The notes below the pieces were generated by a model. That model saw only the letters and a list, made by a program, of their open reading frames with translations, had not been told where the DNA came from and did not search any database. Positions 19,557-59,959 of a stretch of 64,000 nucleotides of DNA are shown in pieces. This DNA is from Octopus vulgaris (taxonomy: Eukaryota). A program made the translations under genes and the position numbers. The stretch covers positions 6,820,001-6,884,000 of the forward strand of contig OX597816.1 in NCBI GenBank assembly GCA_951406725.2, given 5' to 3'. How positions within the stretch are numbered: the stretch's first letter is position 1; the number at the start of each line of letters is the position of its first letter.

Positions 19557-46038
<26,482 letters not shown>

Positions 46039-49561: not shown

Positions 49562-51097
49562 AACAACAAACAAGATCATCATCATCATTTAACGTCTATT
49601 TTCTATGCTAGCATGGGTTGGACGGATTGACTGGGGTCTGTGGAGCCAGGAGGTCTCACCAGGCTCCAGTCTGATCTGGCAGTTTCAACAGCTGGATGTC
49701 CTTCCTAACGCCAACCACTCCATGAGTGTAGTGGGTGCTTTTTACGTGGCACAGGAGCCAGGGGAGGCGATGAGGACAAATATCCATCAAATGTAAATAA
49801 TGTACATAATTCCTCATCTCTTAAATATAGAATTGTATTCTGAGACATGTTAGAACTTTGACAATGTATGGCAGATAATCTTCCAAAATGAAAAGATTTA
49901 GATATAATCTAATAAATTGGAGTTATAGGTTTCAATTTATTTTATTTTTCAAATTAGTAACGGCAGTGCTTGTGACTTCTTTCAGGTATTCCTTGATCAA
50001 TGCTCAGCACAAGTGTTTGTAAATAAAAATGGGGGTGGAAGGGACACAATGTTTGCTCTGAATCTTTGCAATAGAGGAATTCTGCTAAAGGCACCCCAAG
50101 GACCAGATGCAACCACTCCAAGAGTGTAGTGGGTGCTTTTATGTGCCACCAGCATGAGGGCTAGTCAAGCGGTTCTGACAACAACCACGCTCAAAAGGTG
50201 TTTTTTACATGCTACCTGCATGGGAGCCAGTCTGGCAGCACTGGCAACGACCACACCTGAATGTTGTTTTTCATGTGCCAGTAAGGCAATGCTGGCAACG
50301 ATCATGCTTGACTGGTGCTTTTCACATACCACCAGCATGGGAGCCAATCCGTGGCCCTGGCAATGATCACTCGGATGTGCTTTTATCGTTCCAGTGGCAC
50401 GAGTGCCAATCAGGCAGTACTGTTGGAGGAAAGTATTTCATTGGAGCAAAATCATAACTGGAAACCCTTTTCCCAAATGATCACTAAACCACAATATAAT
50501 TTGTTTGTACCTTATTCTGACTATAGTAAGAATTGAACCCATGACCATATCGATAACAAGTCAGTATCTTAACCTCCAATCTAGTTTGCTTCTCTACAAA
50601 TGCAAAGAATTAACACTAATTGAAAGCTAGTTATTGCCAATTCCACAATAATCTGAGACCCCCTTCGGTCATGAATGACCATGGGATTGCACCTAGAAAG
50701 TTATCCTCCAAGGCACAAGTCCGGGCAAGGTTGTTTATGGAAGACCAGCAGTCGCCCATGTATACCGGCCTCCCGTCTCCACGCCACTGATGTTATCCAA
50801 GGGAAAGACAAAGGTCGATACAGCTTGGCACCAGTGACGTCACAACTCATTTCTACAGCTGAGTGAACTGGACCAATGTGAAATAAAGTGTCTTGCTCAA
50901 GACCACAGCACTCAGCCCGGTCCAGGATTTGAACTCATAAGCCAACGCTCTAACCACTGAGCCATGCACCTTCACAATTCCACAATAAAAGACCCAACAT
51001 TAAACGAAGAAATAATGAGTGATTTTTTTTAATATTTTGTTATAAAATAAAAATTCATTAAAATTCCAAATGTAATTAACAGTTTAATTAGCAGTTG

Positions 51098-52358
51098 TTA
51101 CGTTGTTTTCGGTTGTTGTATCTGGAAATTGCAAAGTAGACAAGCAACGGCCCACATTTGTGAGACCGTTTCTTTGATATTCGATGGAACACAGAGAAAA
51201 AGTTGATTTTCAAGGATCTTTCTCATCACATTTTTGATGGGTGACCAGAAGACAGTCATATCTTCTGTTATTTCTGATGTTTCCCATAGTTTATAATCGG
51301 AATGGTACACTTTAATTCCACGCTCGGAACACAGTTTGTTTATCTTAAAATCACTGTCCACAACTATAGCGTCACCTTTTTCACAGAGATCTAAAACGCC
51401 AGATTTTATCGTTAAATCTTGGTCAGACAGAGAATGAGACATAAGAGGAGAGACAAATATCACGGTGCCATTTGGGATGATAGCTATGAGACCTTTGTGA
51501 GTATAAGTTGATTTATATTCTTTATATGGCAGACTTTTCAAAACATGGGACGCAGATGTTTCTGATCTTAATTCCACGCATTCAAGACAAACTCGAGCGT
51601 CACTTAGTTTGAAACCATTCAGGCTACTCGGCAACAGACTTTCTCTCACTTCTTCTTTCGACGGCCAAACTGTCATAACACCAAGAAAAAAGAACAAAAT
51701 ATCTGCCCAGGTAATAATTATGTCCCAAACGGTATCAACCGGCACCAGAAATCTTGCTGCTAAATCCATGACGGACAGTCCTCGATATATATACATTTGG
51801 TACAAAACTAGTTGGTCAATGAGTTGAAGCCCCTTCTCACAGCTGACCGGCTGCAACCCCTCGGTAGTTCTGCTACTCACACGAATCTTGGACCGCATAA
51901 TCGAAGCATGTTCCCACTCTTCAAGAGTATGAAAGAATTTGGTTAAAATTCCATAAGAATCAAAGCCAGTGTAATGTTCCACTAAAGCATCATCGGCACT
52001 GTACCGTTCTAAGGAAAATCGAAAACTGTCGATTTTTGCTTGGTCAAGTTGTCTCCTTAAATCCTGAATTATCGTCCCAGCATCGTCGATTCCACTCGGA
52101 AGGCTATAATTGTGCATCATATCAATGACTGGTACCTCTGTATGTTCAAAGTTGCAATTATTATTCGTCTCCATTTGACATTCCTCTGTTCCCGACGATC
52201 TTCTGCCCCAGTTGTTCCAGCTAAATAATGTTGGATAAGCATTATCATAAAGCCGCAAAGAATGACCAGGTTGACCATAAAGCTTGTTCCTTCTGGTTCT
52301 TGGCTTGTAATCTTCATTGTTGAAATGTTCGCTACACACAAGAGTATCTTTCGTAATT
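51098..52358 (-). CDS. THAP/Harbinger-derived gene, coding exon 2
   Basis: 1261-nt open exon after a polypyrimidine tract and AG; THAP C-terminal half, HTH and DDE-like domain. Confidence 0.9.
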
Positions 52359-54359
52359 CTGAAAAAAAAATCAAAATAAATGTATTGCAAAAGGAAAAAA
52401 ATAAACCTTTTTGAGCGTTAGCCATCACATAAGAGCAATCTTTGGAAATATATTTTTACTACATCATCATCATCATCGTTTAACGTCCGCTTTCCATGCT
52501 AGAATGGGTTGAACGATTTTGACTGAGGGCTGGCGAACCAGATGGCTGCACCAGGCTCCAATCTTGATCTGGCAGAGTTTCTATGGCTGGATGCCCTTCC
52601 TAACGCCAACCACTCCGAGAGTGTAGTGGGTGCTTTTACATGCCACTGGCATGGGGGCCTGTCAGGCGGTACTGGCAATCAGGAAATATGGTAGACATAC
52701 AAGAATTAGAATTTCTCTTGTATCAAATTTCTACACGCTTATATAAAATGACTGTAAAGGTATGTGACTTAATTGTTAGGACATTTGACCCATGAGCATA
52801 AGGTCGTAAGTTCAATTACTGGTGGCACCTATGCAAGACACTTTATTTCACCTTGCTCCAGTTTACTCAGCAATATGATGATAGGCAAAGCAGTTAAGGA
52901 TATGAGGACAGGTTAAGCCCCTGGTCGGTCAGAAATTACTGTGGTGATGCTTCAAGTATCTGATGGCGTAGAATACAACCTAATAATCCCTCATACTTGA
53001 TCAGGTTGGACACGAAGAAGTCATACTCAACGACTGGTGGAGCAAAAGCATTATAGTCAACTGCTACAAAGACAAAAGGGGCCAGTGTTTGGAATCTAAA
53101 TTAACAAGACATTCTGATGAAAGGTTAAGAAGCTTATATCATAGAACCGGGGGCAGTTTCAGGTGGGTTGATATCAAAAGGGTTATGCAAAACATTATGT
53201 ATCAGGAGCAAAAACAGTTTTTAAATCTCTAAATGAGATTTAAATAGTAACGATACTGTACTGGAAAAGTTTATTTGCCAATGTAAGGTGGCCGTTCTAG
53301 AACCCTTACTACCTTTTAAGGGCGGCGAGCTGGCAGAAACGTTAGCACGCTGGGCGAAATGCTTAGCGGTATTTCATCTGTCGCTACGTTCTGAGTTCAA
53401 ATTCCGCCGAGGTCGACTTTGCCTTTCGTCCTTTCGGATTCGATCAAATAAGTACCAGTTACGCACTGAGGTCGATATAATCGACTTAATCCCTTTGTCT
53501 GTCCCTTCTGTGTTTAGCCCCTTGTAGGTAGTAAAGAAATAGGTATTTCGTCTGCCGTTACGTTCTGAGTTCAAATTCCGCCGAGGTCGACTTTGCCTTT
53601 AGTCCTTTCGGGTTCGATTAAATAAGTACCAGTTACGCACTGGGGTTGATGTAATCGACTTAACCCCTTTGTCTGTCCTTGTTTGTCCCCTCTATGTTTA
53701 GCCCCCTTGTGGGCAATAAAGAAATATATATTACTACATTTTAACCCCAGGAAGACATCTTTTCCAATTCTCAGGAAAAGCCATAGACACAGGACCTTGC
53801 TCCAAACAGAACTTAAATGTATACATGTGTGTGTGTGTGTGTGTGTGTAGTATGAAAGACTGATGTGTGCAAGGTAGACTGTGAAATATACAGATGTTGA
53901 CTAAGAAAGACCCGAGGACTTTTCCCCGTGAGACAACATTCGAGACACGGGGAAATAATAGGTGTATGTGTGACACACGATCGATCTAGCGCCGACATCG
54001 GAAAAATCCATAACTGATTCAGAAAGTACACAACTACTTTTTCTGACCAAGTAATCGATTATCTCCCTACTACATTATACACTGTATAATGTAAGGGATA
54101 CGACAGACATGTCTTCCTCGTGTTCTGAGTGAAGTAAGAGAAGTAGTTTCAAGGTGGGATAGAAAAACCCTGTGCAACACAATTCTGCTTCTCTGCACTC
54201 GGTTTACATGAAGTCGACTTGAAATCGGAAACTAATAAAAAGAAGGGAATCCGAGAAAGGGCAAGAATAAGTTAATATTCGGAGTCAGGACATGAGATTA
54301 ACATTAAACAATATTGTATTTCAACATAAAACGGGGTTTTTCCCCACTTTAACGTAATG

Positions 54360-54418
<59 letters not shown>

Positions 54419-55226
54419 TGATGTTGATGATGATTTTTTTGGCACAAGGCGGGGGAGGGGCCAAGTTGATTGCATCGAACCCAGAACTCAACTGGTCCTT
54501 ATTTTATCGACCCCCAAAAGGATGAAAGGCAAAGTTGATCTCAGAACGTAAAGAGCCGGAAGAAGTGCAGCAAAGCACTTAATCCGACGTGCCAACGATT
54601 GTCCAGCCTTGATAATAATTTTCTGCAACAATAAGGAGTAGTAAATATTACACATTCGATCCGAGATCTATAAATCTAATCAAAACTAAACGATTTTAAT
54701 TAATCCAGTCACTAATTAATAATACTGAATTGTAAAGTATATTTCTTTGCAAAAAAAAATCTAATTTTAAAGTTTTGTTTATCTATATTAAGGGGTTGGG
54801 GTACCTGGATCTTTCCAAATAATTAACTTACTTGAATTTTTTGCGGTGGATTTGACAAAGCCAAACTTTGCGAAGATTTTCTCCACATCGAGCACCTGAA
54901 GTGATTATCTTGTCTTCTTTTGGAAAGGTGTGGAAATGCAAATTTGGGTTTTTCTTTGAAGAATTCTTACACATCGGGACACAACAGAAAGCATTCTGTC
55001 CTTTCTGCTTGGAGATGAACAACTGAAGCAGCTTCGTTTTGTTCTCGTCCGACGATGGCTTAATTGTGGTCACGGCCACAGCAGCCACTGGAGGAGGGGT
55101 CTCTGAGCTGATCGAACCCTTTCCACCCGATACAGACATCGATGACGTCGATGTGGTCGTTGTTGTTGTTGTTGTTGTTATACAGGTCGAAGCCGTCGTC
55201 ACCCCAGGTGTTTGATTTCCAGCCAT
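51098..55226 (-). CDS. THAP-domain / PIF-Harbinger (ISL2EU-like) transposase-derived protein, 2 coding exons (55226-54832, 52358-51098), 551 aa
   Basis: Phase-2 GT-AG intron (TTC AA|gtaagt ... tttttcag|A ATT ACG) joins the THAP halves CCVPMC..FHTFP..W and CSEHF..AYPTLF. Downstream: coiled coil, YTGF motif, HTH (QLVLYQMYIYRGLSVMDLAARFLV), and a DDE_Tnp_4-like core (YKSTYTHKGLIAIIPNGTVIFVS..SD..SGVLDLCEKGDAIVVDSDF). No stops or frameshifts. Confidence 0.88.
53320..53725 (+). mobile_element. Dimeric SINE family A in the intron of the THAP gene
   Basis: One tRNA-like head and two bodies. Confidence 0.8.
54832..55226 (-). CDS. THAP/Harbinger-derived gene, coding exon 1
   Basis: ATG at 55226 with an in-frame upstream stop; Thr/Ser-rich leader, then the first half of THAP; strong GTAAGT donor. 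Confidence 0.85.
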
Positions 55227-55497
55227 TTGGTATCGATCCGGATCTAATCAATCCAACAACACTTTAATTAATCTTGATGATGCTTGTTGTTGCATCAAAC
55301 TTTTTCTCCTTTATTTTCCACCTCCTTCCTTTTCTGGTTGGCTTCGTACATTTTTAAAGCATCGGTTGTATATTCAGAAAGGAACTATCATCATCATCGC
55401 CGTAAAACCCGATGTTTATAAATAATCTGGGATCTTGGCTTTAATTGTGATAAAGTTTTGTTTTGATTCCTCCTGAAAAGCGTGGAACAGAGAGGTA

Positions 55498-55552
55498 GTG
55501 ACGTCACTTCCGGTTCGGTTTCGTACCCGGAAACAAAATAAACTACTTCCGG
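55498..55552 (-). promoter_or_regulatory. ETS-CRE composite element plus two further ETS sites; promoter of the THAP/Harbinger-derived gene
   Basis: Minus strand of 55498-55513 reads CCGGAAGTGACGTCAC; CCGGAA at 55527-55532; ACTTCCGG at 55545-55552; about 270-330 nt upstream of the ATG. Confidence 0.7.
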
Positions 55553-55589
55553 AATAAAAAGGCACCGTCTATATATGTACATATATAGT

Positions 55590-56001
55590 ACCTATTTCTT
55601 TACTACCCACAAGGGGCTAAACACAGAGGGGACAAACAAGGACAGACAAACTGATTAAGTCGATTATATCGACCCCAGTGCGTATCTGGTACTTAATTTA
55701 TCGACCCCGAAAGGATGAAAGGCAAAGTCGACCTCAGCGGAATTTGAACTCAGAACGTAGCGGCAGACGAAATACCTATTTCTTTACTACCCACAAGGGG
55801 CTAAAAACAGAGGGGACAAACAAGGACAGACAAAGGGATTAAGTTGATTATATCGACTCCAGTGCGTAACTGGTACTTAATTTATCGACCCCGAAAGGAT
55901 GAAAGGCAAAGTCGACCTCAGCGGAATTTGAACTCAGAACGTAGCGGCAGACGAAATACCGCATAACATTTCGCCCGTCGTGCTAACGAGTCTGCCAGCT
56001 C
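55590..56001 (-). mobile_element. Dimeric SINE family A
   Basis: Same structure as 53320-53725, reverse orientation. Confidence 0.8.
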
Positions 56002-59872: not shown

Positions 59873-59959
59873 ATGCCGGTTCTTTTAGGTGTCAAAGATG
59901 TTGCTATACCAAAGACGACCGTCACATCTTCTTTTACCAATAAAATAGGTGGATACCCT
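59873..59959 (+). CDS. PDCD2L: Programmed cell death protein 2-like, first coding exon (gene probably continues beyond the window)
   Basis: MPVLLGVKDVAIPKTTVTSSFTNKIGGYP matches the PDCD2/PDCD2L N-terminal pattern PVLLGxxD...sKxGGxP and ends at a strong donor (ccct|gtgagt). Later exons were not securely found. Confidence 0.65.

Follow-up and report, generated by a model that had tools for sequence, protein, structure and literature searches.

A 64,000-nucleotide stretch of the Octopus vulgaris genome (contig OX597816.1, positions 6,820,001 to 6,884,000; hereafter the window) carries on its minus strand a gene whose protein combines a THAP zinc finger, a helix-turn-helix (HTH) and the core of a DDE transposase, and we are almost certain that it is a domesticated host gene and not a mobile element. 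The original prediction described an uninterrupted spliced coding sequence of 551 amino acids with these three parts, and an intron of about 2.47 kb, full of repeats, that splits the THAP domain. Both descriptions hold: joining 55226-54832 to 52358-51098 gives 1656 nt encoding 551 residues with one stop, the terminal one, and the 2473-nt GT-AG intron, in phase 2, interrupts the THAP domain and contains high-copy repeats (52359-54831). The product is identical to an O. vulgaris record (P0013), so the gene model is already in databases as an uncharacterised protein. Its parts are, in transcript order:

55227..55487, minus strand: 5' untranslated region of exon 1, from contigs of runs X1, X5 and X11
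54832..55226, minus strand: exon 1 coding sequence, with a Thr/Ser low-complexity N-terminus and the first half of the THAP domain (C81, C86, W122)
52359..54831, minus strand: intron, GT-AG, phase 2, 2473 nt, within the THAP domain
51098..52358, minus strand: exon 2 coding sequence, residues 132/133-551 and the stop
52220..52358, minus strand: second half of the THAP domain (C140, H143, AYPTLF box)
52106..52117, minus strand: MHNY, residues 213-216, an H-x-Y aligned with what is D/E-H-x-Y in most transposase relatives, and similar to a non-canonical HCF-1-binding motif
52022..52090, minus strand: predicted long helix, coiled-coil-like, residues 222-244, from the structure model
51692..51829, minus strand: HTH_Tnp_4-like helix-turn-helix, residues 309-354, from a Pfam match below cut-off and the structure model
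51128..51583, minus strand: DDE_Tnp_4 / RNase H-like core, residues 391-542, with an altered triad
51020..51097, minus strand: 3' untranslated region, extent covered, to the end of the X1 contig at 51020

For the splice joint we aligned contigs from four of the 24 listed runs: X1, X5 and X11, whose RNA nature is a guess, no run that contains this stretch being recorded as RNA, and the larger X15. Single contigs from X1 (1994 nt) and X5 (1755 nt) carry exon 2 at 52358 directly onto exon 1 at 54832, while the X11 contig, which runs through exon 1 from its 81st letter onward, is compatible with the joint without showing it; the junction proposed beforehand is therefore exact in two of the three probable RNA runs. 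Contigs of X15, a much larger run, read through both exon-intron boundaries. An alternative in-frame acceptor is present at 52406, and the contigs splice at 52358. The 5' ends of contigs from the probable RNA runs fall at 55483, 55487 and 55458.

A Pfam check proposed for the protein was borne out in part. DDE_Tnp_4 (E 4.7e-15) and the first half of THAP (profile positions 1-41, 25 bits) lie above the cut-offs; the second half of THAP, on the other exon (51-87, 19.1 bits), and HTH_Tnp_4 (E 6.5e-4) lie below. The AlphaFold model (mean predicted local distance difference test score, pLDDT, 75.7) keeps the folds of THAP, HTH and core, and the Thr/Ser-rich residues 1-75 score below 50. Its best structural match is the ISCth4 transposase (Z 9.4, root-mean-square deviation 3.9, 207 residues aligned), and the THAP of the P element also matches (Z 7.0, deviation 3.0, 74 aligned); Foldseek gave no match at E <= 0.001. 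The family profile matches the solved structures of THAP2 (3e-19) and THAP1 (8e-18), and the zinc ligands C81, C86, C140 and H143, together with W122 and P174, are kept in every row of the gene's clade that covers them.

The domain content also suggests where the gene came from. Excerpts of two papers describe ISL2EU elements as members of the PHIS superfamily whose transposase has THAP, HTH and DDE domains in one protein, and give THAP for no other PHIS group (PMC4482050, PMC4122938). The window gene has all three in one open reading frame, as that definition asks, and is 25-36% identical overall to many animal THAP-DDE proteins, most of which keep the catalytic D-D-E triad. The source therefore looks to be ISL2EU-type, an assignment by domain content among relatives whose annotation goes no further than THAP-type or DDE Tnp4 protein; of the original label, PIF/Harbinger (ISL2EU-like), the second half seems to fit better than a strict PIF/Harbinger origin.

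Copy number, selection and probable promoter

ISL2EU elements have terminal inverted repeats that usually start with GG, an AT target-site duplication and a second open reading frame for a YqaJ exonuclease (PMC4482050, PMC9179366). The window gene differs in lacking the triad, terminal repeats and an adjacent YqaJ gene, and in being single copy, with a host-type promoter and a conserved intron. Among the 16 best scored candidates of an exon-2 protein search of the genome were seven places, namely the gene and six matches at 33-41% identity; an exon-1 DNA search returned the gene itself and six short triplet-repeat matches. The six protein matches are fragments of transposase copies from a family in decay, broken by stops and frameshifts, in which the D, D and E motifs are still visible. 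In this genome, real elements of the ISL2EU kind decay and the window gene does not. The decayed ISL2EU-like family (L002-L006, L015 and L018, on contigs C1, C4 and C5 of assembly G000) is distinct from the gene, and a profile of the gene's own family, run over the 64-kb window, found no other remnant.

The predicted absence of terminal inverted repeats was confirmed: what flanks the gene is high-copy repeats, chance-level short matches and one 11-nt match based on a palindrome. Two candidate pairs were rejected, the inverted pairs at 53327-53705 and 55613-56001, which are high-copy and flank exon 1 only, and the 11-nt pair at 50833 and 55508, which is built on the palindrome. We found no element ends or sister copies from which an AT target-site duplication could be defined. 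As also predicted, the window holds no YqaJ partner; the single match in the genome lies on another contig (L031:1471-2070, on C15), is a YqaJ/lambda-exonuclease-like gene annotated as uncharacterised, and has relatives at 39-69% identity in molluscs, echinoderms and hemichordates (bivalves, gastropods, sea stars). It looks like an old host gene, as judged by its contig and relatives. We rejected co-domestication with it as unlikely, given the different contig and the close relatives far outside cephalopods. In the sea star Patiria miniata, the locus numbers of a triad-less THAP-DDE protein (P0063, LOC119742998) and of the YqaJ orthologue (P0237, LOC119743003) almost follow one another, and their contigs are equal in length; the two genes may be adjacent, possibly by chance. 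Two further THAP loci were seen in the octopus genome (L016/L033 on C2 and L017/L032 on C4); no DDE core was seen within 10 kb of L016 or L017, and the intron of L017 lies one base from the position in the window gene. A metagenome scan for DNA neighbouring the gene returned nothing.

Variation among the four runs supports purifying selection on the gene, as had been proposed. The differences listed for these runs include 21 variable coding sites in 20 codons, and all 20 codons are synonymous; taken singly, 20 of the 21 sites are synonymous against 22.8% expected (P 2.4e-12, with no correction for transition bias). Per-contig counts show the exon-2 variant lists to be full for X11 (11/11) and X15 (12/12) and the other lists to be 0-2 sites short. 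The contigs also lack 3 bases, an unlisted difference consistent with one missing Thr; the record P0003, of 550 aa, likewise has one Thr less. The case for a host gene thus joins single copy, splicing, synonymous variation and intact cephalopod relatives.

Two motifs lie upstream of the transcript:

55498..55513, minus strand: composite ETS-CRE motif CCGGAAGTGACGTCAC, immediately upstream of the 5' ends of the transcript
55552-55545, minus strand: second motif CCGGAAGT, upstream of the transcript 5' ends

The 16-mer CCGGAAGTGACGTCAC is the ETS-CRE motif described in human proximal promoters (PMC3464117, PMC4555227). By eye, an O. bimaculoides cDNA from a supplement begins where the motif ends, and the region is likely the proximal promoter. 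There are 71 genomic copies of the 16-mer and none of its reversed control. We rejected it as a general octopus promoter motif, since 11 of 12 sampled copies lie within one Tc1-like repeat; the flanks of the copy in the window are unrelated to that repeat. The repeat, which we take to be Tc1-like from its translated N-terminus, forms a young Tc1/mariner-like family (L019-L021 and L023-L030, on C1 and C2) whose copies are 92-99% alike over 516 nt and carry a perfect 16-mer about 130-160 nt upstream of the transposase reading frame, on the opposite strand.

The altered triad and the cephalopod clade

In the alignment of relatives, the three columns of the D-D-E triad are occupied in Octopus by E391 (51583-51581), D466 (51358-51356) and K507 (51235-51233), a change not noted in the original prediction. 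None of the nine rows of the gene's clade has D-D-E, against 77 of 132 other relatives: the clade reads E-D-K in Octopus, E-N-K in Argonauta, E-D-D or E-N-D in the cuttlefish group and E-E-E in P0008 and P0025. Residues around the triad are altered as well (the columns of G440, G468, P485 and R508), the neighbouring motif residues being those given in PMC4122938, and a loose form of the PHIS motif D..K..D..D..P..R(3)E occurs in 72 of the 77 relatives with the triad and in one of the nine clade rows, there out of register. Structural residues of the core are kept, and a subset of core residues (K420, P427, G429, S435 and D461) is invariant in transposases and clade alike. On these residues, the protein is probably a catalytically inactive transposase.

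The clade is small and well separated. The first protein search returned nine proteins, and the named members are O. sinensis, O. bimaculoides (97%), Argonauta hians (76%) and a Sepia pharaonis cluster (about 62%); P0005 and P0007 are 60-62% identical to the gene and P0008 41-44%. Beyond the clade, identity falls to about 25-40% among 3572 matches, and those with a name among the 20 rows looked up come from fish, sea stars, gastropods and a spider. A FastTree tree (138 of 141 rows, 315 columns) groups the nine clade rows with support 1.0 on a stem of 0.73, and an IQ-TREE tree of 49 chosen rows gives the clade an SH-aLRT value of 100 and places P0008 outside a group made of (Octopus, Argonauta) and (Sepia cluster, P0007). 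The sister group of the clade differs between the two trees. The best match of P0008 in the O. vulgaris genome is the window gene, as would be expected of an orthologue in a deeper lineage. An older common origin with the triad-less sea-star proteins P0063 and P0099 is not supported, as these fall elsewhere in both trees. From its relatives, then, the gene appears to date back to the octopod-decapod split or beyond and not to be specific to octopuses. That split is about 270 million years old.

The intron seems to share this history. Within the Sepia cluster, the frame of fragments P0020 and P0024 is lost directly behind the residue that precedes ITKD, which is also where P0005 and P0006 come into frame, so the intron position appears common to octopus and cuttlefish-like records. 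One Sepia pharaonis annotation, P0016 (754 aa), consists of the orthologue and an unrelated tail with a membrane-like segment and no match in the window; it is probably two merged genes.

Conservation is uneven along the protein. Between Octopus and the cuttlefish-like P0021, identity is 84% in THAP, 81% in HTH, 53% in the core and 17% in the linker; over P0005 and P0021, THAP stands at 77-84% and the core at 53%, and against the deepest member, P0008, THAP stands at 71% and the core at 37%. THAP and HTH are therefore best kept and, of the folded parts, the core has changed most, which suggests selection on reading DNA and not on cutting it.

This gene has been listed before without its transposase part being named. 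The O. bimaculoides protein XP_014767474, 97% identical and the same gene, is a row of a 2023 supplement among potentially transposon-derived THAP factors (PMC10027918), where it is classed as 'THAP' only, while Capitella rows receive a DDE_Tnp_4 label. The abstract of that paper states that none of the listed factors has homologues in the closest neighbours, which, judging by the clade described here, does not hold for the window gene within cephalopods. Titles and openings of papers gave no report of an ISL2EU-derived host gene or of this gene, in a search that mostly left out subscription journals and other supplements, and we found no mention of its accessions in main texts. It is well supported that this is a known general kind of gene from a source group with no published case that we found.

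Possible roles of the protein

Plants, vertebrates and insects are all known to have host genes tamed from Harbinger-type transposases, most of them paired with a separate Myb-like protein. The plant protein ALP1 lost two of its three triad residues and joined PRC2 (PMC4671723); like the window gene it is low-copy, catalytically altered, of PHIS type and host-retained, with an intron near its 5' end, and with HDP1 and PANDA it makes up a set of plant host genes from Harbinger-type transposases. These three differ in that their PIF/Harbinger/Pong sources bind DNA through a separate Myb/SANT protein, whereas THAP is part of the same chain here. HARBI1 of vertebrates and the PIF genes of insects are likewise animal host genes from a DDE_Tnp_4-type transposase (PMC9392472, PMC5753468, PMC9710019), but they pair with Myb-like or MADF partners, and the excerpts describe no THAP for them; we infer an origin of the window gene independent of theirs. 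THAP1, THAP11 and THAP9 share with it an N-terminal C2CH THAP and an H-x-Y beside a coiled coil. THAP9, in contrast, comes from the P element and has kept transposase activity. THAP1 and THAP11 are not known to have a transposase core.

We favour, with moderate confidence and on the pattern of conservation, the reading that the gene encodes a regulator of transcription or chromatin which binds specific DNA sequences and does not cut them. Such a protein could have arisen as follows. An ISL2EU-type element would first have entered the genome of an ancestral cephalopod; it would have lost its ends and its YqaJ gene, and the transposase would have been placed under a host-type promoter; and the active site would then have decayed, the first Asp becoming Glu in every member. 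The zinc-binding THAP, perhaps with the HTH, would read a fixed genomic motif, and the coiled-coil-like helix and dead core would offer dimer or cofactor surfaces, with MHNY possibly recruiting HCF-1.

THAP factors recruit HCF-1 through a D/E-H-x-Y beside a coiled coil, a motif that most human THAP proteins have, though not all (PMC13631171), and BAP1 has a non-canonical NHNY (PMC9601668). All seven clade rows examined have M-H-x-Y, departing from the D/E-H-x-Y of THAP factors. In the same columns, 129 relatives have D or E in 68 cases, H in 79 and Y in 68, and 54 of the 129 (P0038-P0185) have a D/E-H-x-Y, mostly ahead of the coiled coil. HCF-1 recruitment by MHNY may occur and is a lead only, because the cephalopod motif has no acidic residue. 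The Kelch domain of octopus HCF-1 folded with residues 198-244 gave a score of 0.00, which, with no controls folded, counts neither way.

Several points weigh against a regulator, or against parts of the case for it. Triad loss alone is no proof of domestication, since 55 of the 132 other relatives also have no D-D-E, although these include truncated and degenerate proteins and possibly misaligned or other domesticated ones. The runs behind the splice evidence are only guessed to be RNA, and 11 of the 12 sampled copies of the promoter 16-mer sit in a transposon family. MHNY has no acidic first residue as in the HCF-1 consensus, and the non-canonical motifs of THAP4 were negative in co-immunoprecipitation (PMC13631171). 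The H-x-Y itself is inherited from transposases and need not mark a new role. The regulatory function is our inference from domains and conservation, and the protein still has its entire core, most of it modelled with pLDDT above 85, a part that would be superfluous in a pure DNA-binding factor.

The protein might instead be mainly a scaffold subunit of a chromatin complex, acting through its dead core like ALP1 or HDP1, with DNA binding secondary. The core is full-length in all full-length clade members, with a confident fold and the five invariant residues named above, and ALP1 is a precedent. But it is also the least conserved folded part, at 53% against 77-84% for THAP, and the protein, unlike ALP1 or HARBI1, has a DNA-binding domain of its own; we regard a mainly scaffolding role as unlikely.

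The good conservation of the DNA-binding parts would also suit a factor that controls transposons, a dead transposase that binds ISL2EU-type ends or poisons their transposase, and related DDE transposases, a family now in decay, do occur on several contigs of the genome. We think this less probable still. The related copies are just 33-41% identical. Next to L002 and L005 are THAP remnants to which a fish relative showed a weak match and the THAP of the gene none. THAP identity of 71% over the deepest split and the lack of non-synonymous variants are more in keeping with a fixed target than with an arms race.

If the protein were still a nuclease, its acidic site rearranged to E391, D444 and D466, and served DNA repair or rearrangement, this would account for the acidic residue at the first position in nine of nine rows and for D444 in seven of nine. 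Against it, the second position is Asn in two of nine rows and the third Lys in four of nine, and one triad change reportedly cuts Ping transposition drastically (PMC4671723), so that we hold this role to be very improbable. That the gene is a transposon of recent date or one that still moves, or else a neutral relic yet to decay, has next to no chance: the domain order is that of ISL2EU transposases, and ISL2EU elements can be transcribed (PMC9179366), but the gene is single copy, without ends, partner gene or triad, varies only synonymously, and its tree separates octopods from the cuttlefish group.

Within the regulator reading, we find it tempting to speculate further, though the idea is doubtful as a whole: given that P0008 lies outside both octopods and decapods in the tree, the taming of an ISL2EU transposase may date from the origin of cephalopods or earlier, and may have yielded a self-contained THAP and HTH factor that recruits HCF-1 through an H-x-Y inherited from transposases, as one of a recurrent, undescribed class in animals. 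If so, THAP factors could have gained their cofactor motif directly from transposases. The D/E-H-x-Y of many transposase relatives hints that cofactor recruitment is older than domestication. Many sea-star and fish relatives also have no triad, and these may be further domestications. What distinguishes the octopus gene is strong conservation confined to a cephalopod-like clade, a DNA-binding domain of its own and a THAP-bearing ISL2EU source, making it a candidate lineage-specific regulator in a group of animals in which new forms of regulation are the object of an active search.

Neighbouring genes

The predicted order MCM5 - gene - PDCD2L is in part observed. MCM5 lies at about 30282-43800 on the plus strand, tail to tail with the THAP-DDE gene. 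On the other side, outside the window and 9 kb from its end, an exon encodes PDCD2_C; it is on the plus strand, as is an exon at 59873, which we take to be the start of PDCD2L. A PDCD2L gene running from 59873 on the plus strand is the probable neighbour, head to head with the window gene and about 4.4 kb from its transcript start. Exon 1 and the promoter are flanked by inverted tandem pairs of a high-copy repeat (53327-53705 and 55589-56001), which are about 90% alike.

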